Sequence record: PQ595991.1
Source of the DNA: Escherichia phage Psq-1
DNA: 44,183 nucleotides
Direction: 5' to 3' (one strand)
Shown here: positions 2,480-43,426 of the stretch, one piece after another
Numbering within the stretch: the stretch's first letter is position 1
How the letters are laid out: each line of letters starts with the position of its first letter
Position numbers and translations under genes: made by a program
Notes under the pieces: model-generated
Seen by the model: the letters and a program-made list of their open reading frames with translations, nothing else
What the model was told of the DNA's origin: nothing
Databases searched by the model: none

Positions 2480-2682
2480 GCTTGACTTGCAACCAACATA
2501 GAGGCCATACTGCAACCAACCAATAAGAGGAGTAATCAAGATGGCACGTAACGATATTTGGGTATTAGCGATCTGGACCACCGCGGCTTTTATCGGCATG
2601 GTTATTTGCGAATTGATATAACCCGCCGCCATACGGACCGTGATATATTGTCCACGGTCCACTAATCAGGAATTAATTAAAT

Positions 2683-4130: not shown

Positions 4131-4703
4131 ATGAACAAAAGGGCTTATATCATGGCAGAAATCAAAGTTAAGGGCCGACGCGCCAAACTGGACGGGCGAG
4201 TAGCAGTAACCCCGCGTCGTAAACCAGGCGAGCAAACAGAGCATACCAATCTCGGACCGGAAATCGAATACGGAAAGCGCCGTAAAGGCGGCAAATGTGG
4301 ACGACCTACTGACTACCGATCCGTTTACTGCGACCAGCTTCGCCGCTATTTTGCCGACGCCGACGCATGGCAGGTCAACTACTCCGATAAAGGCGCTGCG
4401 CAAGTAATCCCTCGCAACAAAATGCCGACCTTCGGTCGATTTGCCGCTGAAATCGGCGTAGGCGTAGCTTGCCTGTATCGCTGGGCGCGTGCGCATGAGG
4501 AGTTTGCCGAGGCGATGGCGGACGCAATGGAACTGCAGAAAACTTTCCTGATGGAAGCCGGTGGTGTGACCATCGCGGCAGGCTTCGCTACATTCCTGCT
4601 TAAAGCAAACCACGGCGTCCGCGACGATGTACCGCTGGATGACGACGAAGATGATAACGGCGACGTAGTTGTCGAACCTTCCGGCAAAGGCCAGGGTGAA
4701 TAA
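4131..4703 (+). CDS. terminase small subunit (putative)
   Basis: Position immediately upstream of TerL with TAATG overlap; HTH-like PTFGRFAAEIGVGVACLYRWARAHEEFAEA; acidic C-terminus. Start chosen at internal ATG 4131; track ORF opens at 4053. Confidence 0.6.
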   Translation: MNKRAYIMAEIKVKGRRAKLDGRVAVTPRRKPGEQTEHTNLGPEIEYGKRRKGGKCGRPTDYRSVYCDQLRRYFADADAWQVNYSDKGAAQVIPRNKMPTFGRFAAEIGVGVACLYRWARAHEEFAEAMADAMELQKTFLMEAGGVTIAAGFATFLLKANHGVRDDVPLDDDEDDNGDVVVEPSGKGQGE

Positions 4704-6088
4704 TGCGTAACTATGCGGCAGAACACCGCGCACTGGAACGCGCGATCGCAAAGCGCAACAGACCACCACGCCCGACACGCGTTGCGCAGGCGGTGCGTCT
4801 TTACCAGCCTGATTGCTTGCCGCACCAGGTTGAACTATTGCGCGACACAAAGACTAAAATCCTCGGCCTGTGCTCTGGCTTCGGCGGCGGCAAGTCATGG
4901 GTCGCAGCCCGTAAGGTAATCCAGCTTTTAACCCTGAACCCTGGTCATGATGGCATCGTTACAGAGCCGACTATTCCACTCCTGGTTAAGATCATGTACC
5001 CGGAACTGGAGAAGGCATTCGACGAGGCTGGCTTCCGGTGGAAGTTCAATAAGCAGGACAAGATCTACAATGTGCTGGTGAAAGGCAAATGGACTCGCGT
5101 TATCTGTGAGTCAATGGAGAACTATACCCGCCTGATCGGTATCAACGCCGCGTGGATTGTTGCCGACGAGTTCGACACCACGAAGCAAGACGTCGCAATG
5201 GCGGCATACCACAAACTTCTCGGTCGTCTGCGTGCAGGCGTAGTCCGCCAGTTTGTCATAGTGTCCACGCCGGAAGGATTCCGGGCGATGTATCAAATTT
5301 TCGAGGTGGAGAAAGATAGCCAGAAACGCTTGATCCGGGCGAAGACCACGGACAACCACCATTTACCGGCAGACTTTATAGACACGCTTCGCAGTCAGTA
5401 CCCGGCTAACCTGATTGATGCGTACCTGAACGGCATGTTTGTTAACCTTACGTCGGGCGCGGTGTACAAGATGTTCAACCGCGAGGAGAACGCCAGCACC
5501 GAAGAAGTGCAGCCGGACGACACGCTGATTATCGGTATGGACTTTAACGTCACGAAAATGGCGGCGGTCGTGTATGTAAGACGGCAGCGTACCACCGAGA
5601 ACAAGGAGTTCCGCGACGAGATTCACGCGGTGGATGAATTTGTGGACCTGTTTGACACCCCGGCTATGATTGAGGCGATCGAGGAGCGCTACCCAGAACA
5701 TTGCGCCGCCGGTCGTGTTGTCGTTTACCCGGATAGCAGCGGCAAATCACGCAAGACGGTCAACGCGTCGTCGTCCGATATCGCACAACTGGAAGACGCG
5801 GGCTTCGATGTGGAATATGACAGCGTTAACCCGCCAGTGAAAGACCGATTGATCGCGATGAATACGATGATGTGCAACTCGAAGGGCGTTCGCCAGTATT
5901 TTGTCAACCTGGATAAATGCCCTACACTAGCGAAATGTCTGGAACAGCAGGTTTACGACCTGAAGAAAGGCGAGCCGGATAAAACCGCCGGTGTAGACCA
6001 CATGAACGATGCCGCGGGCTACCCTATTGCGCACTTGTTCCCTGTGATTCGTCCGATCGCCGTTGTTCCAACTGTAGACTTCTACTAA
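4703..6088 (+). CDS. terminase large subunit
   Basis: Walker A GFGGGKS, Walker B-like WIVADEFD, C-terminal nuclease-like region; 461 aa. Confidence 0.85.
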   Translation: MRNYAAEHRALERAIAKRNRPPRPTRVAQAVRLYQPDCLPHQVELLRDTKTKILGLCSGFGGGKSWVAARKVIQLLTLNPGHDGIVTEPTIPLLVKIMYPELEKAFDEAGFRWKFNKQDKIYNVLVKGKWTRVICESMENYTRLIGINAAWIVADEFDTTKQDVAMAAYHKLLGRLRAGVVRQFVIVSTPEGFRAMYQIFEVEKDSQKRLIRAKTTDNHHLPADFIDTLRSQYPANLIDAYLNGMFVNLTSGAVYKMFNREENASTEEVQPDDTLIIGMDFNVTKMAAVVYVRRQRTTENKEFRDEIHAVDEFVDLFDTPAMIEAIEERYPEHCAAGRVVVYPDSSGKSRKTVNASSSDIAQLEDAGFDVEYDSVNPPVKDRLIAMNTMMCNSKGVRQYFVNLDKCPTLAKCLEQQVYDLKKGEPDKTAGVDHMNDAAGYPIAHLFPVIRPIAVVPTVDFY

Positions 6089-7620: not shown

Positions 7621-8707
7621 TCAATATATGGCGGATCGAATGATTCGCCGTCACATATTCACCCAGCGCCTGAGCAATGACCAGGCGCGGAGGGTGCTGG
7701 CTATGTGGGAGAAGTTCCGCCCCTCGTTACTTGGTAAGCTGACCGAGTTACTTGATGGCAAAAAGTCCATGAATAACAAGGCACTGTCCACGCTGTTGAC
7801 GCAACTCGACAAGACAGTTAAAGCAGAATTGCGCACCGAGTTTAAGGCGTTGGCTGAAAGCCTTCAGGAGTTTGCCGACACGGAGGCTGATTATCTCGCC
7901 GACACATTAACGGCAGCGATCCAGCCGGTGGTCGCCGTACGTGCGGTTGAGGTGGTTGGCGTAGTGACCGGTGCGCAGATCGCAGCGACGGCTATGAAAA
8001 ACCCGTTCCAGGGTAATACGATGATGCAATGGCCTGACTCACTTTCTGAGTGGACCAGAACGCAGATCGGCAATCAGGTGCGCGCCGGATTCATCCAGGG
8101 CAAGCCGACTATGGAAATTATAGCGGACGTGAGGCGCGCGCTCGGCGGTCGTAGTGCGCAAGCTATCTCAAGCGTTGTTAAGTCGGCAGTCAACCACTAT
8201 GCGGCTACCGCCCGCGAACTAATGGTAAAAGCAAATGACGATATTCTCGAAGGTCGCCAATGGTTATCTACATTGGACACGCATACTTCTCCCATGTGCC
8301 AGCTACGCGATCGCCTGTTTTATCCGGTTGATGTTACTCCCGACACCAAAGGAAAGCGCGGCGGGGAAGTGGTGGCTGGGTCACAATATGGCGCTGGTCC
8401 GGGCAAGTTGCATTATTGTTGCCGGTCGACGGAGACGTGGAAGGTTAAAGGCATGGAAGATTGGCCCAGTGGTAAGCGTCCGGCACTGAAGGCTGACGCG
8501 GGTCGATTGCTGAGTGAGCAGGTCGACGCGCAGACTGATTTCTTCTCATGGGTGCAGCGCCAGCCGCGCCATATCCTGGAAGAATTATATGGGGTGCAGC
8601 GCGCCGACCAGATTATGCGCGGCGTGAAAGTGCCGAAGATGTTCACCGATTCAGGTGAACTGATGACTATCGCACAGCTTAAAAACCGGGGGTTATGGCG
8701 TGATTAA
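7604..8707 (+). CDS. head morphogenesis protein (MuF / SPP1 gp7-like)
   Basis: 367-aa ORF overlapping the portal stop, in the position of MuF-like minor head proteins. Confidence 0.55.
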   Translation: MAKTINQYMADRMIRRHIFTQRLSNDQARRVLAMWEKFRPSLLGKLTELLDGKKSMNNKALSTLLTQLDKTVKAELRTEFKALAESLQEFADTEADYLADTLTAAIQPVVAVRAVEVVGVVTGAQIAATAMKNPFQGNTMMQWPDSLSEWTRTQIGNQVRAGFIQGKPTMEIIADVRRALGGRSAQAISSVVKSAVNHYAATARELMVKANDDILEGRQWLSTLDTHTSPMCQLRDRLFYPVDVTPDTKGKRGGEVVAGSQYGAGPGKLHYCCRSTETWKVKGMEDWPSGKRPALKADAGRLLSEQVDAQTDFFSWVQRQPRHILEELYGVQRADQIMRGVKVPKMFTDSGELMTIAQLKNRGLWRD

Positions 8708-9029
8708 GTATGCAGCGATTGGACTGGTTATCGGTCTGGCGGTAGGATTCTGGTTAGGCGACTCCTATCGCGCTGGCGTAGTGGCGGAGGCGGCGCAAGA
8801 AGCGCAAGCCGAAGCCCAACGGCAGCAAACTAAAGTAATTGAGCGCTCCGTGCAGGCAGAACAAGCCCGCGACGTGGAATACCGGACTATCACAAAAGAG
8901 GTTGTTAAATATGTTACGCGCCCTAACCGCCCTGATTGTAGTTTTGATGCTGAGCGCGTGCGGATCAAGCAACGCGCCGTTGATGCCGCTAACGGAGTCG
9001 GCACTGCGACCGCCGTGCAAGTTCGATAG
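8700..9029 (+). CDS. i-spanin (Rz-like)
   Basis: N-terminal TM anchor IKYAAIGLVIGLAVGFWLG followed by an A/E/Q-rich coiled-coil segment; the o-spanin-like ORF is embedded in the +1 frame. Confidence 0.5.
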   Translation: MIKYAAIGLVIGLAVGFWLGDSYRAGVVAEAAQEAQAEAQRQQTKVIERSVQAEQARDVEYRTITKEVVKYVTRPNRPDCSFDAERVRIKQRAVDAANGVGTATAVQVR

Positions 9030-9141
9030 CCCGTCCGCAGACCCCGACGAGGATTTGATGATTGACGTGAAAAATATGGAATGCGGGGCGAAGCTAAGGG
9101 CGCAGGTGCTGGAGTTGCAGCAAATAATTAAGGGGCCGTAA
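8911..9141 (+). CDS. o-spanin (Rz1-like outer-membrane lipoprotein)
   Basis: ATG 8911 preceded by AAGAGG; signal peptide MLRALTALIVVLMLSAC with lipobox LSAC; Pro-rich mature part with extra Cys; overlaps and extends past the i-spanin frame. Confidence 0.55.
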   Translation: MLRALTALIVVLMLSACGSSNAPLMPLTESALRPPCKFDSPSADPDEDLMIDVKNMECGAKLRAQVLELQQIIKGP

Positions 9142-9153
9142 TGGCCCCTTTTT
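9131..9153. terminator. bidirectional rho-independent terminator between convergent genes
   Basis: AGGGGCC-GTAAT-GGCCCCT hairpin with TTTTT on the plus side and A-run on the other. Confidence 0.6.
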
Positions 9154-9155
9154 CG

Positions 9156-9920
9156 TTAGCGAGGAATGCCGCAAATCTCGTTGAGTGTTTTCACGTCCAG
9201 CGCCACTGCCGTGGATTTGGGCTTGTCCGTGTATGGGATGAATTGCTCGACTTCAGGCCATGCCTTAATCAGCTTCTTGTCTGTATTGTGCAGGTCCAGT
9301 ACACCGGTAACGGTGAGTTTGAACGCATCATACTTCGCGCGCAACTCGCGACGGGCTTTGTCGTTGCGGTCCAGGCGTTTGCAGAAATAATGATCTGCCG
9401 GGTAGTCTACGCGACCGCGAGGAAGATATATCGGCAACGCTTTCCCGTCCTCGTCCACTTCGCACACTGACGCTAACATAATTTCCTCATACCCAGGTAC
9501 GATATCACCGAGATCGGGCGAGAGATTATTCATATATTTCTCTTCCCAGTACCCGCGATGTATGCGGTGTTGGCGACCGTCGCCGCTCAATGACAAGGTG
9601 CGAACATTGCCGCCTGCGTTGATTTCAAAGGTGGCGTTATAGACGCTGCCGATACCCTTCGGGCGGTCGGAGTTATAACTATACGTCGCCTTGTTGGTGT
9701 ATACGCTGACGCCGTACATCTGCGACTGGTCATCGCGGATTAACAGGATATGCTCGCGTAGCGCGGCGAATGTGCGAATGCCGTCCGGCATACAGTCCAG
9801 CGTGATTGCGTACGCCAGGTCGCGAGAGTCCATCATGATTTGTTTGGCTTCGGTTGCGATTTCGTGGTCGCGCAGGATGTTAGCTAGGATCTGATTTTTA
9901 ATGTCTTTTGTCAGTCTCAT
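9156..9920 (-). CDS. hypothetical protein encoded antisense to the head module (254 aa)
   Basis: Start set at internal ATG 9920 with GAGGA 8 nt upstream; own upstream region with ATTGGTTGCA boxes and own terminator; no motif recognised. Confidence 0.5.
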   Translation of the reverse strand: MRLTKDIKNQILANILRDHEIATEAKQIMMDSRDLAYAITLDCMPDGIRTFAALREHILLIRDDQSQMYGVSVYTNKATYSYNSDRPKGIGSVYNATFEINAGGNVRTLSLSGDGRQHRIHRGYWEEKYMNNLSPDLGDIVPGYEEIMLASVCEVDEDGKALPIYLPRGRVDYPADHYFCKRLDRNDKARRELRAKYDAFKLTVTGVLDLHNTDKKLIKAWPEVEQFIPYTDKPKSTAVALDVKTLNEICGIPR

Positions 9921-10069
9921 TTTTGTGTCCTCATTGTTGGTGTGCAACCAATATAGCGCAACCAAGACAAGGATTGCAAGCTAATTTTGCGATTATTTTT
10001 ATCGCTGATAATATTAGAAGCGTGAAGTCGAGCGGGTGGCCTGCTCTGCCACAATCCCAGGGGGATAGC

Positions 10070-10774
10070 ATGAAACTTACTAAAGCAGAATATGACGCGT
10101 TGCCGGAAGGTATGAAGGCGCTTTTTGTTGCCGATGGTGACGGGTATAAATCAACGTTCATGACCGCCGAAGAAGTACAGGCGGAGATCAAGGGTCTGAA
10201 AGACAACAACGCGAAGCTGGTTAGCGAGAAGAAAGCAGAAGCCGAACGCCGCGCCGAAGCCGAGCGCCTTGCGAAAGAGAAAGAGGAAGCCGCCGCGCGC
10301 AAAAATGGCGACCTCGAAGCGATCGACAAGTCCTGGAAAGATAAGTTTGCAAAACACGAAGCAGACACATCGGGAAAAATCGAAGCCTACCGCAAGCAGA
10401 TCCACGATCTAACCATCGGCAGCGCTGCCAAAGATCTGGCGTCGAAGCTGTTCGGTAAGAATGCCGGAATCATGCAACGCCACGTTATGGACCGCCTCAC
10501 GCTGGAAGACGGCGAAGACGGCAGCTTAAAAGTGCGTGTCTTGCAGGATGGCAAACCGTCCGCGCTGACTATGGAAGAGCTTGAAAAAGAGTTCCGTAAT
10601 AACGCCGATTTTGCATCCGTCCTGGCTGGCACTCCAGCAGGCGGCGCTCCTAGCAAACCGACGCAGGTTGTCGAAGATGTGAAGTCAAAAATCACTATGG
10701 GCCATAGCTTCGGTATCACTGACTTGACGAAACAGGCCGGGGATATCATCGCTAAAATGGGCGACGACGAGTAA
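10070..10774 (+). CDS. head scaffolding protein (putative)
   Basis: ATG 10070 preceded by AGGGGGA; charged K/E/A-rich coiled-coil composition; immediately upstream of the major capsid gene. Confidence 0.6.
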   Translation: MKLTKAEYDALPEGMKALFVADGDGYKSTFMTAEEVQAEIKGLKDNNAKLVSEKKAEAERRAEAERLAKEKEEAAARKNGDLEAIDKSWKDKFAKHEADTSGKIEAYRKQIHDLTIGSAAKDLASKLFGKNAGIMQRHVMDRLTLEDGEDGSLKVRVLQDGKPSALTMEELEKEFRNNADFASVLAGTPAGGAPSKPTQVVEDVKSKITMGHSFGITDLTKQAGDIIAKMGDDE

Positions 10775-10871: not shown

Positions 10872-11972
10872 ATGTCTTTAACAGTGTTCCAGCGTAAACT
10901 CGTCACCGCGGTTACGCAAATGATCCCCGATAACCTGAACGTGTTCAACGCTGCCGCTAACGGCGCTGTTGTTCTCGGCACGGGTGAAGTGCTGAAGGAC
11001 GTTGTAGAAAAAATGTCCGTAGGCTTGATCGCCAACCTCGTTACCGACCGTAACGCATACGCCCCTGTCGGTACTCCAGCGACCGCAAAAGTGCTGGCGC
11101 GTATGCTGACCAACTCGGTTAACCTTTCCGCGAAAGTGGGTCCGGTAGCAATCACTAAGGCCATGATGGCTAAGATCGAAACCAACGTTAACAGCGTTGC
11201 GGCTGAGATTGCGGCACAGGCTACTCAAGCGATTATGCTGCATTACCTCAAAGCTGGTATCGGTGCGGGCAAAGCCGCTATTGAAAGCAACACAGCGGCA
11301 AACTACACCCAACCGGCGCGCGTTGACGGCGTTGGCGGTCGTACCTTCCCGACCCTGGCAGACTTCCCGCTGGCAGCTTCCAAGTTCGGCGATCAGGCGT
11401 CTTTGATTAAATCCTGGTTTATGGACGGCGTTACCTGGGCAAACTTCATCGCATACCAGGCGCTCCCATCTGCCGAGCAGGTATTCGCGATCGGCGATCT
11501 GCAGGTAATGGGCGACGGCCTGGGTCGCCGTTTCATTATCTCCGATGCCGCGGCTGACGCGATGGGCGCGGGTAAAATGCTGGGCCTGGTCCCTGGCGCG
11601 GTTGCAGTTACCACCAACGGCCTTGATATGCTGGCGCAGGAAAAAGGCGGTAACGAGAACATTGAGCGCTGGTGGCAGGGCGAGTTCGACTTCAACGTGG
11701 CTGTTAAAGGCTATCGACTGAAGGCGTCCGCTCGCACCCAGATCGAAGGTGTACGCTCGTTCAAACTGGACGATATCACCACTAAGGATAACTGGGAACT
11801 GGACCAGGGCCAGGTAGACAACGCACCGGCAACCGTTCAAGATGTTGGCGCGGTTGGTGACGGCGATACTAAAGGCCGTCGTAAAACCCAGGCTGCGCAG
11901 GCAGTGCCTACCCGTCACATCAAGGAAACGGCGGGCGTACTGGTTACGCTGACTGCGACTACCGCGTCTTAA
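10872..11972 (+). CDS. major capsid protein (putative)
   Basis: 366-aa ORF after the scaffold gene, followed by a strong terminator; call is by synteny. Confidence 0.7.
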   Translation: MSLTVFQRKLVTAVTQMIPDNLNVFNAAANGAVVLGTGEVLKDVVEKMSVGLIANLVTDRNAYAPVGTPATAKVLARMLTNSVNLSAKVGPVAITKAMMAKIETNVNSVAAEIAAQATQAIMLHYLKAGIGAGKAAIESNTAANYTQPARVDGVGGRTFPTLADFPLAASKFGDQASLIKSWFMDGVTWANFIAYQALPSAEQVFAIGDLQVMGDGLGRRFIISDAAADAMGAGKMLGLVPGAVAVTTNGLDMLAQEKGGNENIERWWQGEFDFNVAVKGYRLKASARTQIEGVRSFKLDDITTKDNWELDQGQVDNAPATVQDVGAVGDGDTKGRRKTQAAQAVPTRHIKETAGVLVTLTATTAS

Positions 11973-15539: not shown

Positions 15540-15540
15540 C

Positions 15541-15870
15541 GGAGCGGGACAGGCGGGACGTCCCGTTTTGTCACGCACCTCTAAAACTGCATATTTACTC
15601 ACCACAATTGCATAAACTAAAAGCGGGACAGGCGGGACGTCCCGTTTTGTCCCACCCCCAAAATGTGAATGTCTATTCAGTTTTAGTGCATAAAGTAAGC
15701 GGGACAAAAAGCGGGACAAACCAGGGGCGGGACAAAGTGGGACAGCACCCCCGTCCCCGTCAGTGCTGCCGCGGGTTTTAGCCGATCGGGACAGGCGGGA
15801 CAAACCCCAGTCTTTCAGACTAGACGGGGGTCAGTTGGCCCCCTCGTCTGAGACTGAATAAGGTTTGTTT
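15541..15870. repeat. iteron-like repeat element, copy A
   Basis: About 12 GCGGGACA/GGGACA boxes, two 30-bp direct repeats (15543-15572, 15622-15651) each holding the palindrome CGGGACGTCCCG, TGCATAAA boxes, and a GC-rich inverted repeat (15808-15856). Segment 15687-15861 recurs at 43050-43222. Confidence 0.6.
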
Positions 15871-15924
15871 TAAATTCGCTGATACAATGACCGACGGCAA
15901 CTGCATAAAAAGGGGGACTGCATA

Positions 15925-19989: not shown

Positions 19990-20730
19990 ATGTTGACGAA
20001 AAAGGTTAAAAGTGATATCGCCGCACACGTTGCGGCATGTCTGCCGGAAGAAGCCTGCGGCCTGGTTGTCATGGTGGGCCGCAAACAAGTTTTTATCCCG
20101 TGCCTTAACGTGTTCGAAGACCCCACCGGCGCGCGCTCTCGAAAGGACGCGTTTACAATTAGCGATATGGCCTGGATGGATGCCGAGGATATGGGCGACG
20201 TCGTGCGCGTAGTCCACTCGCACCCAGGTCAGCGCGAGTTAACCCCGTCGTTGGGCGACGTTAACGGATGCAACGGCAGCGGCGTCGTCTGGGCCATCAC
20301 TAACGAATATGGCGACTTTATCGAGATCGACCCTGAAGATCCTCCGCTGGTGGGGCGTCGATTTGTTCTCGGAATTACGGATTGTTACGGCCTCGTCATG
20401 GACTGGCACAAAAAGCAGGGAGTAAACCTGCCAGACTTCCGCGTGCCATATAACTGGTGGGAGACAGGCGAGAATCTGTATATGGATAATTGGTACGGCG
20501 CGGGCTTCAGGGAGTGTGAGGAAAATACGCCGGGGGCAATGGTAATTATGAAAATCAGCGCGCCAGTACCTAACCATGCCGGGATATTCCTTCCAGGCAA
20601 CCAACTACTACACCATATCTACGGCAGTCTGTCGAGTGTGATACCCTTCCGGTCAGGATTTTTCCGCGACAATGTGGTTAAATGGGTACGTCATAAAGAC
20701 CTACCGGGGAATATAACAGAATGGCAATGA
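19990..20730 (+). CDS. tail assembly protein (lambda K-like; JAB/MPN plus NlpC/P60)
   Basis: JAB motif VHSHPGQ and NlpC/P60-like Cys in GITDCYGLV. Confidence 0.75.
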   Translation: MLTKKVKSDIAAHVAACLPEEACGLVVMVGRKQVFIPCLNVFEDPTGARSRKDAFTISDMAWMDAEDMGDVVRVVHSHPGQRELTPSLGDVNGCNGSGVVWAITNEYGDFIEIDPEDPPLVGRRFVLGITDCYGLVMDWHKKQGVNLPDFRVPYNWWETGENLYMDNWYGAGFRECEENTPGAMVIMKISAPVPNHAGIFLPGNQLLHHIYGSLSSVIPFRSGFFRDNVVKWVRHKDLPGNITEWQ

Positions 20731-25776: not shown

Positions 25777-25998
25777 TTACCACTCCCGAGATTTAACTGA
25801 TACCGTACCAGAGAAGTTGCCGTCACTATCCGCGGACAGGCCGGTGAAGCGCATGTCGACCTCCCCAGCAGGGACTTTTTGCCCGTCAACGTAGCGCAAC
25901 ATGCAGCTTCCGTAAGCTACCGTAATGCAATCGCCGTTGTTACGCTCTACCGCGCAGCCGGACAGAAGAACCGCACAAATCACAATTAATGTTTTCAT
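25777..25998 (-). CDS. small lipoprotein, Llp/Cor-like superinfection-exclusion candidate (73 aa)
   Basis: ATG 25998 with AGGGGA upstream; signal peptide MKTLIVICAVLLSGC with lipobox LSGC; four further Cys in the mature part. Confidence 0.6.
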   Translation of the reverse strand: MKTLIVICAVLLSGCAVERNNGDCITVAYGSCMLRYVDGQKVPAGEVDMRFTGLSADSDGNFSGTVSVKSREW

Positions 25999-26078
25999 GG
26001 TATCATCCCCTATATTTGGTTGAGTTTTAGTATTGCACCGCTCAACCAAGAATGCAACCAATTTATGAGGATTCAGCT

Positions 26079-27719
26079 ATGGCAGCGGGTACACTATCCG
26101 TAACGAATAACAGCAAGGCGGTTGTCGGGGTAGGCACGACGTTTACCACGTTTACCGCTGGCGACTTCTTAACTCTGGTGGTGGGGCAAGTGCCTTACAC
26201 TGTTGCTATCGCGTCCGTCGAAAGCGACACCGCGATTACGCTTGTGCTTCCGTTCGACGGCCCCACGGCAACCGGCCTCGCGTGGGATGGCGTTAAGCGC
26301 GATACCATGTCGCTGGCAACGATGGGCGTAACAGTACAGGCACAGAAAGCGTTGCGCTTGATGATCGCTGACGAAAACAACTGGCGTGCAATCTTCGGAG
26401 ACGAAGAAGAAGTCACGGTAACGCTGCCGAACGGGCAAGTTATGCAAGGTATGGCATGGGGCTACCTGTCACAATTGATGAGGCAGATCGACCCCGTTGA
26501 AATGCGCAACCTGCAACAACAAGCCGCGGCATCTGAAGCAGCAGCGCAAGGATTTCGCAATGAGGCCGAAGGCTTCAAGACTGAGACGGCGGGGATCCGC
26601 GACGCCACCAACCAGATTAAGGCGGATACGCAGGCTATCCGCGACGCCACCAACCAGATTAAGGCGGATACGCAGGCTATCCACGACGCCACCAATACCA
26701 TCAAGACGCAGACGGCCCAGATTAAGACTGACACCGGCGTTATTCGCGATGAGGCCAATGCCGCGAAGGCTGAAGCGCAATCCGCCCGAGATGCCGCGCT
26801 GGGATATCGGAACGAGGCCGAACAATTCAAGAATGAGATTGACCCGTCTAACTTTCTGGCAAAGGGTGGCAACCTGGCTGGGTTAACTGACTTGTCCGAG
26901 TCGCGGGATAACTTGGGTTTAGGAGCGTTGGCGACTAAAGATTCGGCGGCGCTAAACTCCACAGATACGACCGGTATTCTGCCCTTAGATAAGGGCGGTT
27001 TAGGCGCTGGTACCATCCCTGGCGCACGGGAGACGATGCATATTTATGGTCATGACGCTACGTTCGGGACCATAAATAATATCCTCACATACTTCAACAA
27101 TATTGCGGGTAACGGCGGACTCTTCTCGTTTCGAGATGGTGCCGTTGACGCCACTAACACCTACAAATTCGGCTCAGCAATACTGTTTCGCTCAGCCGAC
27201 ACCTACGGACTGTTAAGTGTTGACCACAACAACGGAAACGTTAGAGCATCCGGTGGTGTAGTTTCTGGTGGGATCGCGGCCACAGCATACATCAACAACC
27301 TGTGGGGTACGCGTAACACCACCGTAGACGGTAACGGGTTTATTAAAACCGCGTCGCCCATCGTCAAGATCTTCAGTGACGGTGCCGCGGAGACTAACGA
27401 CGAGGCCGAAGGCGTTACGGTGACTCGCATATCTGCGGGGGTGTATGTTGTGGAGGGGTGTCTAGGCCTCAACTCAGACCCATCCTGGGGCGGGCCTGAC
27501 GGCGGGATTGAGATTCCGACGGACGTGAACAAGCAGCCTCGTTTATGGGTTGATTATAAAGTGCGCGCTGACGGCTCTGTGGAGGTACGCACATACCACC
27601 GAACACACCCACACGCTCCAGCATTCGCAAGAAATGAGATAGAAGGTGTGGCGGAAGGGGACCCGGTTGATATACCGCGTGGCACGTTCATATCTGTTCG
27701 GGTTAATATGCCTGAGTAA
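26079..27719 (+). CDS. tail fibre protein (546 aa)
   Basis: ATG 26079 with GAGGA upstream; coiled-coil shaft with 14-aa repeats (IRDATNQIKADTQA), Gly-rich C-terminal domain. Confidence 0.7.
   Translation: MAAGTLSVTNNSKAVVGVGTTFTTFTAGDFLTLVVGQVPYTVAIASVESDTAITLVLPFDGPTATGLAWDGVKRDTMSLATMGVTVQAQKALRLMIADENNWRAIFGDEEEVTVTLPNGQVMQGMAWGYLSQLMRQIDPVEMRNLQQQAAASEAAAQGFRNEAEGFKTETAGIRDATNQIKADTQAIRDATNQIKADTQAIHDATNTIKTQTAQIKTDTGVIRDEANAAKAEAQSARDAALGYRNEAEQFKNEIDPSNFLAKGGNLAGLTDLSESRDNLGLGALATKDSAALNSTDTTGILPLDKGGLGAGTIPGARETMHIYGHDATFGTINNILTYFNNIAGNGGLFSFRDGAVDATNTYKFGSAILFRSADTYGLLSVDHNNGNVRASGGVVSGGIAATAYINNLWGTRNTTVDGNGFIKTASPIVKIFSDGAAETNDEAEGVTVTRISAGVYVVEGCLGLNSDPSWGGPDGGIEIPTDVNKQPRLWVDYKVRADGSVEVRTYHRTHPHAPAFARNEIEGVAEGDPVDIPRGTFISVRVNMPE
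26595..26678 (+). repeat. perfect 42-bp tandem duplication inside the tail fibre gene
   Basis: ATCCGCGACGCCACCAACCAGATTAAGGCGGATACGCAGGCT twice (26595-26636, 26637-26678), followed by a degenerate third unit. Confidence 0.85.
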
Positions 27720-28961: not shown

Positions 28962-29419
28962 GTAAATTTTGCAACATTTATTGCGTAAATTTTCGGAACC
29001 AGATCGCTGCACGCCCGACGAATTGCCGCGATGTTCTTCTCGCAATCTTCAATGATGACCAGTTCCGACACGTCTGCGTAGCAGACCATTTTGAACACGG
29101 CGCACGCCTTAAACTCTGGCGGCGGGGTATCGTCCAGCATGTGGCGCATAAACAACCGGCCTGTCGGGAATACTTCCAGTTGCTCGGCGGTAGTCTCCCA
29201 ACATTCGCGCTGCCGGTTGGTCAGATAAGCGATCTCGAAGCCTTGCTCTTTATACATGCGCAACAGCGGCAGCATATCCATGTTCAGATCTTCGCGGACG
29301 TGCGCTTTGTGCCACTTCGCCCAAAAGGTGGATTTTGTTTTTATGCCCGGAACAAGGTCGGCGCGTGCATCACTCGAACCATTAATAACGCCATCAAGAT
29401 CACAAATCAGTAGTTTCAT
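28949..29419 (-). CDS. HAD-superfamily phosphatase (156 aa)
   Basis: HAD motif I CDLDGV near the N-terminus, motif II-like LTNR, motif IV-like IIED. Confidence 0.6.
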   Translation of the reverse strand: MKLLICDLDGVINGSSDARADLVPGIKTKSTFWAKWHKAHVREDLNMDMLPLLRMYKEQGFEIAYLTNRQRECWETTAEQLEVFPTGRLFMRHMLDDTPPPEFKACAVFKMVCYADVSELVIIEDCEKNIAAIRRACSDLVPKIYAINVAKFTCNQ

Positions 29420-29640
29420 TTTAAGCTCTCAATAAGGGTGTGTCGGGCGCTGCGCGCGGTGAAGGAGTTGCATACGAAATGGCAACGCTGAGTCATGACA
29501 AGCCAACCGGTGAGGTCAAGGCCCAGGATGTATTCGGGGCGAGACGCGCGCACCACACGATCGCGGCGTGGGTCAATACCGTAGTCTTTTTGCATTTGGT
29601 ATACTACCGCGGGGTCGCGGTCAACGATTAAGATATTCAA
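29416..29640 (-). CDS. hypothetical protein (74 aa)
   Basis: Track ORF with overlapping stop/start coupling to its neighbours. Confidence 0.35.
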   Translation of the reverse strand: MNILIVDRDPAVVYQMQKDYGIDPRRDRVVRASRPEYILGLDLTGWLVMTQRCHFVCNSFTARSARHTLIESLK

Positions 29641-40223: not shown

Positions 40224-40553
40224 ATGAATATCGACGACGCAATCGAAATGTTAACTAAGACTGTTTGCAGTGAGACTAGCCGGTCTTGGGCATATACAGA
40301 TGCCGTTGGGGCGGTGCTATTTGAAATCGAACGTCTGCGACTTACCGAAAAAGAATTGCGCGCGAAGCTGGAATTACTCAACGGTACGGCAGCCAGCAAG
40401 CTGCAAAAGCACAATGAAGAAATGGAAGAATACAAAAAACAGGTTATCCGTTTGCGCGATGAGGGGAAGTCATGGGCGATGATCGCCGAGTTGACAGGAA
40501 TTAATCAGAGCACCGTGCGCTCCTGGGTACGCAATAACAAAACTTCGAAATAA
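40224..40553 (+). CDS. HTH domain protein, putative regulator (109 aa)
   Basis: C-terminal HTH GKSWAMIAELTGINQSTVRSWVRNNK; coiled-coil middle; first gene of the plus-strand early unit. Confidence 0.5.
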   Translation: MNIDDAIEMLTKTVCSETSRSWAYTDAVGAVLFEIERLRLTEKELRAKLELLNGTAASKLQKHNEEMEEYKKQVIRLRDEGKSWAMIAELTGINQSTVRSWVRNNKTSK

Positions 40554-42955: not shown

Positions 42956-43049
42956 ATTTTGCGCGCATTGGTTGCCATTTTGAGTGTTTTTAGCTGGTCG
43001 CATTGGTTGCCGTGTAGTGTAAAAATATTGAATAGTTATGCAATAAAAC

Positions 43050-43222
43050 TGCATAAAGTAAGCGGGACAAAAAGCGGGACAGACCAGGGGCGGGACAAAG
43101 CGGGACAGCACCCCCGTCCCGCCCCGGATGACGCGGCCTGGCGAGGAGCGGGACAGGCGGGACAACTACCAGTCTTTCAGACTAGACGGGGGTCAACGGC
43201 CCCCCTCGTCTGAGACTGCATA
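43050..43222. repeat. iteron-like repeat element, copy B
   Basis: Six GCGGGACA boxes, a TGCATAAA box, inverted GTCCCGC...GCGGGAC, and the same GC-rich inverted repeat as copy A (43170-43217). AT-rich stretch at 43021-43050. Confidence 0.6.
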
Positions 43223-43370
43223 AAATCCGGGATTGCAAAATACACGGCAGCACATTGTAAATTGCGGTCGTCGCGGAACTAGGCAACCAATGCGGGATGC
43301 AGAACGTGGTGTGAAAAATGCAGTCACAGCAGATAGCGATCAACTTTTTCATACGCGTGATTAATATTGG

Positions 43371-43399
43371 TTGCATTCACCTCGGCGCCTTGCTATATT
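43371..43399 (+). promoter_or_regulatory. sigma70-like promoter built from two ATTGGTTGCA boxes
   Basis: -35 TTGCAT (43371-43376), 17-bp spacer, -10 TATATT (43394-43399). Confidence 0.4.
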
Positions 43400-43426
43400 G
43401 GTTGCACACCAACAGGAGGGCGGAAC

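Follow-up and report, generated by a model that had tools for sequence, protein, structure and literature searches.

The antisense nmad5 gene of Escherichia phage Psq-1: a Dhillonvirus accessory unit with a proposed early/middle, non-enzymatic role

The DNA analysed here, hereafter called the window, is the whole 44,183-nt stretch of Escherichia phage Psq-1 (PQ595991.1), and positions given below are window positions unless another sequence is named. We focus on nmad5, a leftward gene that lies inside the head module between the spanin genes on one side (8700-9141; i-spanin 8700-9029, end of the o-spanin at 9141) and the scaffold gene on the other (10070-10774, placed by mapping the proteins of phage EP23). 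Its coding sequence occupies 9156-9920 on the minus strand and encodes 254 aa plus stop from an ATG at 9920, in agreement with the initial annotation, which had placed a minus-strand open reading frame (ORF) of this length here. The mechanically called ORF reaches upstream to a TTG at 9965; we take the ATG at 9920 as the true start because the family consensus opens with M-R-L-T. A Shine-Dalgarno sequence, GAGGA (9928-9932, minus strand), was read from the sequence 7 nt before this ATG, which bears out the earlier claim of a ribosome-binding site of its own, and it is kept in relatives.

The initial annotation had recognised no motif in the protein. This is overturned by Pfam PF18757 (Nucleotide modification associated domain 5, Nmad5), which the protein matches over its full length: residues 1-253 align to model positions 1-206 of 206 (E=1.3e-58; 198.9 bits, with the cutoff at 27). 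The product also matches PHROG 1965 (annotated as unknown function), while NCBIfam gave no match and sequence and profile searches of the PDB returned nothing. A 2.3-kb query around nmad5 matched 158 phage records (80-95% identity), with few exceptions from Escherichia and Shigella Dhillonvirus (HK578, EP23, SSL-2009a and relatives), the closest being vB_EcoS_Sponge at 95.4% identity. Within Dhillonvirus phages, Nmad5 proteins are 94-97% identical, and some GenBank records (BF9, UDS3lw) already carry the Nmad5 annotation. The gene has been named and studied in Dhillonvirus before and is not a new element. The ratio of nonsynonymous to synonymous substitution rates (dN/dS) was 0.09-0.13 against three relatives, which identifies this as a real gene under purifying selection. 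Its GC content (52.5%, compared with 54.5% for the genome) led us to reject a recent horizontal acquisition on GC grounds. We are highly confident of the identity of the gene as Dhillonvirus nmad5 and of the anatomy of its unit.

A sigma-70-type promoter was located by consensus scan at 9950-9979 on the minus strand, with a -35 element TTGCAA (9979-9974), an 18-nt spacer and a -10 element TATATT (9955-9950). Transcription would start near 9943, giving a short 5' leader (9921-9943, minus strand), the junction at which relatives carry an additional promoter-proximal gene and at which the slot is empty in the window. Sponge, SSL-2009a, EP23 and Teewinot all keep this promoter ahead of their first leftward gene, and its 23-nt core, GCTATATTGGTTGCACACCAACA, is exactly repeated at 43392-43414 on the plus strand. 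At the other end of the unit, a hairpin at 9130-9150 (GGGGCC-loop-GGCCCC) scored as terminator-like on both strands, with free energies of -15.5 and -15.9 kcal/mol (z = -2.7 and -3.3), and is kept in EP23, SSL-2009a and Sponge. On the plus strand the hairpin has a good T-tract, on the minus strand a weak one (AATTATTT). The terminator had earlier been described as bidirectional and dedicated to this gene; it is bidirectional, but it is shared with the convergent spanin operon on the plus strand. Likewise, expression independent of the late structural operon fits the promoter, ribosome-binding site, terminator and opposing orientation, an arrangement kept in EP23, SSL-2009a and Sponge, and at the level of transcription it is predicted from these sequence features. 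The remaining divergent intergenic region (9980-10069, plus strand) lies upstream of the scaffold gene and holds a weak candidate rightward promoter, found by eye and under the scan threshold (TTGCGA at 9987-9992, 16 nt, TAATAT at 10009-10014). Rfam gave zero matches across the entire window.

Shared boxes and a variable slot

Two copies of the exact 8-mer TTGGTTGC lie upstream of nmad5 on the minus strand. The proximal box (9944-9951; full form ATTGGTTGCA, 9943-9952) overlaps the 3' end of the -10 element and the predicted start, and the distal box (9958-9965; form CTTGGTTGCG) sits within the promoter spacer. Of the two boxes reported earlier, both therefore exist as the 8-mer, and the full ATTGGTTGCA form is found in the proximal copy only. 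In the whole window, TTGGTTGC occurs 19 times (2489, 2512, 9944, 9958, 20597, 26054, 28941, 28952, 30600, 30617, 33560, 37125, 37141, 40027, 42968, 43003, 43283, 43367 and 43398), compared with 1.80 +/- 1.26 expected from dinucleotide-preserving shuffles, whose maximum was 5. Fifteen of these copies are intergenic, and EP23 has 17 copies at homologous positions. The boxes, TTGGTTGC(A), are mostly paired in direct or inverted orientation, 11-35 nt apart from start to start, and overlap sigma-70-like promoters.

The other promoters marked in this way belong largely to replication and non-structural genes. Boxes stand upstream of p26 (28941/28952, forming a palindrome), the ligase-like/methyltransferase operon (30600/30617), the Lar-like gene (33560) and SSB (37125/37141), in the divergent early region (40027) and 3' of the primase gene (42968/43003), with more at 43283-43405 and at 2489/2512. 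Across the 23-kb structural block, the sole intergenic box besides the nmad5 pair is that at 26054, in a divergent receptor-binding/tail-fibre locus, and the box at 20597 is within a tail gene. Since nmad5 shares its boxes with replication and non-structural promoters, the gene is probably co-regulated with these rather than with the surrounding late head genes. In both the nmad5 promoter and the promoter at 43392, one box spans the -10/+1 region. This overlap, together with the orientation-independence at 2489/2512, suggests that the boxes are operators for a regulator and not elements recognised by the polymerase. An obvious candidate for the protein that binds them is a 109-aa product encoded at 40224-40553 on the plus strand, just before the helicase-primase gene, which has HTH_23 and Sigma70_r4_2 matches and is called a transposase in EP23. 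No description of the motif was found in the literature searched, where its sequence turned up in primers only. The box resembles GTTGCATT, which we take to be the E. coli CytR octamer, and we make no claim from this likeness.

Two further box-bearing regions were observed. Directly 3' of a box-flanked promoter and before the DNA-repair exonuclease gene lies a small ORF (2536-2616, plus strand, ~26 codons) with a strong ribosome-binding site, which encodes the hydrophobic peptide MARNDIWVLAIWTTAAFIGMVICELI and is absent from the EP23 table. The divergent control region at 25950-26100 separates a short gene on the minus strand, which starts near 25998, from the tail-fibre/receptor-binding gene (26079). 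It holds one exact box and degenerate copies arranged as an inverted repeat (TTGGTTGAG ... CTCAACCAA). The EP23 tail-fibre protein at the 26079 locus is just 64% identical across about half its length.

The nmad5 slot varies among relatives. Roughly 90% of Dhillonvirus records have an intact copy (145 at 80% coverage or more; 140/166). In Sponge, as in the window, the promoter directly abuts nmad5. A different 109-aa gene, orf8 (PHROG 24635, annotated as unknown function), stands between promoter and nmad5 in SSL-2009a, and such a gene was found there in about 21 records out of the 57 that were informative in a spread sample of 60. EP23, WF5505, rolling and CHD5UKE2 have a 170-aa gene at this position. 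Where a gene has been added, the first gene follows the same box-bearing promoter, and nmad5 has a GGGGC-GAAA-GCCCC hairpin ahead of it.

The presence or absence of the locus in relatives, a check proposed with the initial annotation, showed that not every relative has an intact nmad5. In HK578 its place is taken by an unrelated 140-aa gene, and SO-1 has the 170-aa gene alone. Teewinot has kept the promoter, ~35 codons and the 3' end of nmad5 while the body is deleted, and in SM_S24 the gene is truncated after residue 177, with loss of the conserved C-terminus. Because nmad5 is absent, replaced or truncated in these relatives, it is a common but dispensable accessory gene rather than a core gene, which agrees with the viable deletion reported by Yamashita et al. 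In this respect the earlier suggestion that the locus carries cargo was right.

The 170-aa gene (EP23 p08, L001 2902-3414; SO-1 gp7, L020 760-1278), which is absent from the window, encodes a DnaN fragment. It comprises beta sliding clamp domain II and a C-terminal ...MPMRL, and matches E. coli-type clamps in the PDB (E=4.5e-8). The name "RusA-like resolvase" given to the EP23 gene in RefSeq and by its PHROG label appears to be wrong, and the fragment may act as a clamp mimic or decoy.

The Nmad5 family and the modification label

An exhaustive HMMER search of 1.84 billion representative sequences returned only 96 matches to Nmad5 at E<=1e-3, in which the C-terminal third was the best conserved part. 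As all 96 are 45-250 aa long (full-length ones 170-250 aa), none is a domain of a larger protein. In an alignment of 82 family sequences, only L217 and W221 are invariant; G104, P222, L246 and N247 are conserved in at least 90% of the sequences, T213 and E223 in 89%, and the D176-H177 pair in 51%, while K216 is the majority residue at 57%. All family-wide positions are present in the window protein (N-terminal R-L-T, G104, T213, L217, W221-P222-E223, L246-N247 and a C-terminal G-L/I-P), which carries K216 within ...H-N-T-D-K-K216-L-I-K-A-W-P-E..., next to the invariant L217 and near W221. Residues ~120-165 are a lineage-specific insertion, and isoelectric points range from 5.0 to 9.8 in the family. 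Conservation of a catalytic type was not seen in the alignment.

A confident AlphaFold2 model was built with the alignment (predicted local distance difference test, pLDDT, 90.5; predicted template-modelling score, pTM, 0.83). It contains three N-terminal helices and a beta-sheet subdomain, together with a helix of 32 residues (178-209) and short helices at the C-terminus that bear the conserved motifs. Foldseek against BFVD gave phage proteins as top matches, the named ones being Nmad5 (E=8.5e-29 to 4.5e-5; TM-scores 0.41-0.77, query- or target-normalised), and the predicted fold is that of other PF18757 members. Against solved structures, the model had no match and resembled nothing like a nucleotide- or cofactor-binding enzyme. 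The profile and structure searches proposed earlier have thus given a family and a predicted fold without a solved relative.

The family owes its name to a neighbourhood of modification genes. In phages M6, CN1 and SN1 and in the metagenomic contig L014, nmad5 lies between HMUDK/aGPT-Pplase-type genes and a ThyA-like hydroxymethylase. The M6/YuA, CN1 and SN1 proteins belong to the same Pfam family as the window protein (M6 ORF056, E=2e-33) and have in common with it the C-terminal T-x-K-K-L-x3-W-P-E ... L-N-x3-G-L-P. However, they are 186 aa long, lack the ~45-residue insertion at 120-165, and their genes are flanked by 5-HMUDK, aGPT-Pplase, radical-SAM, PLP and dUMP-hydroxymethylase genes, none of which is in the window, where the neighbours are spanins and the scaffold gene. 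Searching the window by tblastn with the M6 and L014 cassette enzymes retrieved only Nmad5 itself and otherwise chance-level fragments (E>=0.2); HMUDK, aGPT-Pplase/ADDT, rSAM, the PLP enzyme and the ThyA-like hydroxymethylase had no homologue. The EP23 annotation lists no thymidine-hypermodification genes. In the BASEL collection, Dhillonviruses were not among the phages resistant to restriction-modification, unlike the deazaguanine-modified Queuovirinae (PMC8594841).

A wider survey of neighbourhoods covered contigs encoding seven diverse Nmad5 members. A DNA_pol_A gene was found within the 5-kb flank in 6 of these 7 metagenomic contigs, including the hypermodification-cassette contig L014, and the association with modification genes was confined to the M6/CN1/L014 lineage. 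In Stx phages, nmad5 comes directly after N in the pL operon. This Stx/lambdoid gene 3' of N (SH2026Stx1 gp17, mEp235) gives the best Pfam Nmad5 match (E=3e-71). It belongs to an early operon and has no modification genes close by, which speaks for an early role unrelated to modification. It differs from the Psq-1 gene in that the phages are temperate and it is transcribed in the pL operon rather than as its own unit; its 207-aa product is ~33% identical to the window protein, in the C-terminal third only. Bas95 and Vibrio phage D456 have nmad5 within arrays of small early genes, and one Vibrio phage has it inside the tail module. The common denominator of these contexts is the early/replication phase rather than base modification, and the "DNA-modification" label is without support in this genome.

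A distant Nmad5 homologue was also observed in an HK97-like metagenomic contig (L012, 5001-5663), antisense between the major-capsid and head-tail connector genes. It is an independent repeat, in an unrelated phage, of the arrangement in which a gene runs backwards in a head module.

A proposed replication-phase role and its alternatives

The gene has been linked to the defence system Tmn. According to Yamashita et al. (2025), Dhillonvirus mutants that escape Tmn carry K216E in Nmad5 (K296E in a longer annotated form), reversion of K216E brings Tmn sensitivity back and engineering it in gives escape, while deletion of nmad5 is viable, leaves Tmn sensitivity unchanged and gives no escape (PMC11846954). 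They describe the gene as uncloneable, with apparent toxicity, and report a separate anti-Tmn gene, ORF35, in Dhillonvirus phages. The nmad5 of PhiSMA8 and PhiSMS22 is the same gene in the same place ("near the capsid gene"), in a 254-aa form with K216; the window carries the wild-type K216 allele and differs in having no extra gene between promoter and nmad5. The initial annotation had suggested that such an inserted gene might serve host interaction or defence/anti-defence. The published K216E escape supports a link of this kind, but not a role of the wild-type protein as a defence or anti-defence factor, as deletion leaves Tmn sensitivity unchanged in the experiments cited.

Phage T2 offers a parallel. 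There, according to a 2026 preprint (PMC13001434), the direct activator of Tmn is RIIB, a protein that the preprint describes as early-to-middle and replisome-associated. RIIB and Nmad5 are both products of non-structural phage genes to which Tmn-escape mutations map; the former is replisome-associated, and the gene of the latter has a promoter of the replication class and, in other phages, lies in replication modules. The two differ in that nonsense loss-of-function of RIIB gives escape and RIIB alone activates Tmn, whereas nmad5 deletion, in the work cited, gives no escape. Nmad5 is therefore not the sole Tmn trigger. As deletion does not phenocopy K216E, this mutation is best read as a gain or change of interaction rather than a lost function.

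In its build, the unit recalls the morons of lambdoid phages, which are likewise compact promoter-gene-terminator units between conserved structural genes, with variable presence and alternative cargo. At the sequence level, nmad5 has its own promoter and hairpin, and shows presence/absence and replacement of cargo in relatives; gp7, next to this site, is entered as a "possible moron" in the SO-1 record itself. Classic morons are genes whose expression from the prophage is of benefit to the lysogen. Dhillonviruses, in contrast, are virulent, and the nmad5 unit carries the genome-wide boxes of the phage and is wired into its lytic programme.

Taken together, we consider it the best explanation, with a probability of roughly 55%, that Dhillonvirus nmad5 is a compact leftward accessory unit whose product is an early/middle non-enzymatic factor. 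Judging from the boxes, nmad5 would be switched on with the early/middle (replication, host-takeover) class rather than alongside the late head genes; the hairpin at 9130-9150 would insulate this programme from the late head programme. The protein would most likely be a non-enzymatic binding or adaptor protein of a phage-only alpha/beta fold, unlikely to be a base-modifying enzyme, and would probably act on the DNA-replication/host-takeover machinery as a replisome-associated factor or one directed at host DNA metabolism. Its functional interface may be the conserved C-terminal surface T213-x-K-K216-L217-x3-W221-P-E223 ... L246-N247-x3-G-L/I-P; the published K216E falls exactly in this surface, one residue from the invariant L217. 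For the mechanism itself, a binder rather than an enzyme acting in the replication phase, we see the chances as evenly balanced. Since T2 RIIB activates Tmn, it is plausible that Tmn reads a replication-phase complex in Dhillonvirus too, and by analogy Nmad5(K216E) might perturb or mask such a complex.

A bolder version is tentative. Nmad5 could be the founding member of a widespread phage-only fold, a non-enzymatic effector on the phage replisome or the host clamp/replisome under a Dhillonvirus-wide TTGGTTGC-box regulon, with its W-P-E surface lying in a complex monitored by the membrane NTPase Tmn and K216E hiding the true trigger. If Nmad5 were such a phage-only replication effector, its co-transcription with a stolen host beta-clamp fragment in some relatives would be functional and not accidental.

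Several observations weigh against the explanation we favour. The boxes could equally mark late shut-off; the lone promoter consensus match is within chance (1 found, 1.8 expected), and published transcript or timing data were found for no Dhillonvirus. The association with a DNA polymerase gene is partly trivial, as early genes cluster. R2, T213, E223 and N247 are conserved polar residues, and a new kind of enzyme would remain compatible with this sparse polar conservation and with a model that has no structural match. Furthermore, nmad5 is tightly embedded in a thymidine-hypermodification cassette in M6, CN1 and L014-type phages, which accounts for the family name and speaks for some function connected with modified DNA within that lineage. 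No binding partner of Nmad5 is known, and its deletion has no reported phenotype.

Two alternatives are less firmly excluded than the rest. Nmad5 might be a dedicated anti-defence effector against another host immune system, which K216E retargets or broadens to Tmn. An accessory gene that is patchily lost from a variable slot and whose model has a binder-like architecture would fit this, as would the position of the Stx-phage nmad5 just after N. Lambdoid phages often keep host-interaction genes at that place. In addition, the escape allele acts like a gain-of-function allele, and nmad5 has apparent toxicity for the host. We nevertheless regard an anti-defence effector as unlikely: wild-type Nmad5 is not known to inhibit any defence system, the actual anti-Tmn gene of Dhillonvirus phages lies elsewhere in their genomes, dN/dS of ~0.1 bears no arms-race signature, and the spread of the family over very diverse phages and hosts, mostly in replication modules, better fits a housekeeping-like accessory role. 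Quite improbable, in our view, is that Nmad5 modifies DNA or nucleotides, either as an enzyme itself or as an essential subunit of such an enzyme, and that Tmn senses the modified phage DNA, which is the reading of Yamashita et al. The hypermodification cassettes of M6, CN1 and L014, with nmad5 beside HMUDK, aGPT-Pplase/ADDT and ThyA-like genes, the mapping of an escape mutation to nmad5 and a small DNA methyltransferase encoded elsewhere in the genome speak for it. However, the cassette enzymes are missing from the window and from most family contexts, the protein has neither a conserved catalytic constellation nor similarity to a solved enzyme fold, and Dhillonviruses have no special resistance to restriction. 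That nmad5 deletion keeps Tmn sensitivity, as reported, is also hard to reconcile with a mark made by Nmad5.

That Nmad5 is a head-assembly or virion protein which happens to be encoded on the opposite strand is largely refuted and has very little probability left, even though it is located between head-morphogenesis/spanin and scaffold/capsid genes and family members occur in the structural modules of two other phages. Its orientation is opposite and its promoter is of the type used by replication genes; it is dispensable in nature and, according to the deletion cited, experimentally, and elsewhere it is found mostly in replication or early regions. Proteomics of a lysate of the Dhillonvirus EE09 detected 24 proteins and 16 of 17 annotated structural proteins (PMC10673088); no 254-aa protein was among the 24, with carriage of nmad5 by EE09 unconfirmed. 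A non-functional chance or decaying ORF could account for the truncated or deleted alleles in a few relatives and the fragments in metagenomes, but is refuted by the dN/dS values, the full-length Pfam match, the intact 254-aa form in ~145 phage records and the phenotype that a point mutation, K216E, has in the published experiments.

The "nucleotide modification" label has been propagated widely and read as a function: Yamashita et al. treat Nmad5 as a DNA-modification enzyme from the family name. The present evidence does not support this reading, and in Dhillonvirus the label should not be taken to state a function. As the modification partners are absent and no enzyme-like signature was seen, experiments on how Tmn senses Dhillonvirus should be redirected. 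Relative to the parts of that study considered here, our analysis adds a box regulon linking the nmad5 promoter to the non-structural programme, the slot polymorphism, the structural analysis and the evidence against the modification label. Moreover, the box motif offers a testable handle on the timing of gene expression in therapeutically used coliphages, and the slot between spanins and scaffold, which naturally tolerates insertion, replacement and deletion, is useful for phage engineering.

Genome setting and other elements

Mapping EP23 proteins on the window placed 55 of 57 annotated genes, and the window is a complete, circularly permuted Dhillonvirus genome. Lysis genes (1017-2024) are followed by the DNA-repair exonuclease gene, and the terminase (4131-6088) by the portal and head morphogenesis genes (to 8707). 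Beyond nmad5 and the scaffold gene, the major capsid gene (10872-11972) precedes tail genes that extend to ~27 kb. A leftward replication block occupies 27.7-39.5 kb, and the rightward helix-turn-helix gene and the helicase-primase gene 40.2-43.0 kb.

The replication block includes Ksap1, a candidate identity for nmad5 that we rejected. Ksap1, a Dhillonvirus protein of 74 aa, is a direct activator of the defence protein KpAvs2 (PMC11564622), and its gene lies between methyltransferase and phosphatase genes at ~29419-29640 on the minus strand. The homologue there is only 61% identical to the EP23 allele and may be a natural variant that escapes KpAvs2 recognition.

Finally, two clusters of six GCGGGACA iterons were observed at 15540-15920 and 43040-43260. 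They have in common a near-identical segment of ~180 bp (15684-15862 and 43046-43225) with a long hairpin, CAGTCTTTCAGACTAGACGGGGGTCA...CCCCCTCGTCTGAGACTG. One cluster follows the helicase-primase gene, and the other lies in a ~700-bp, partly non-coding gap between the tape-measure chaperone and tape-measure genes. The clusters may be duplicated origin-like or protein-binding elements.

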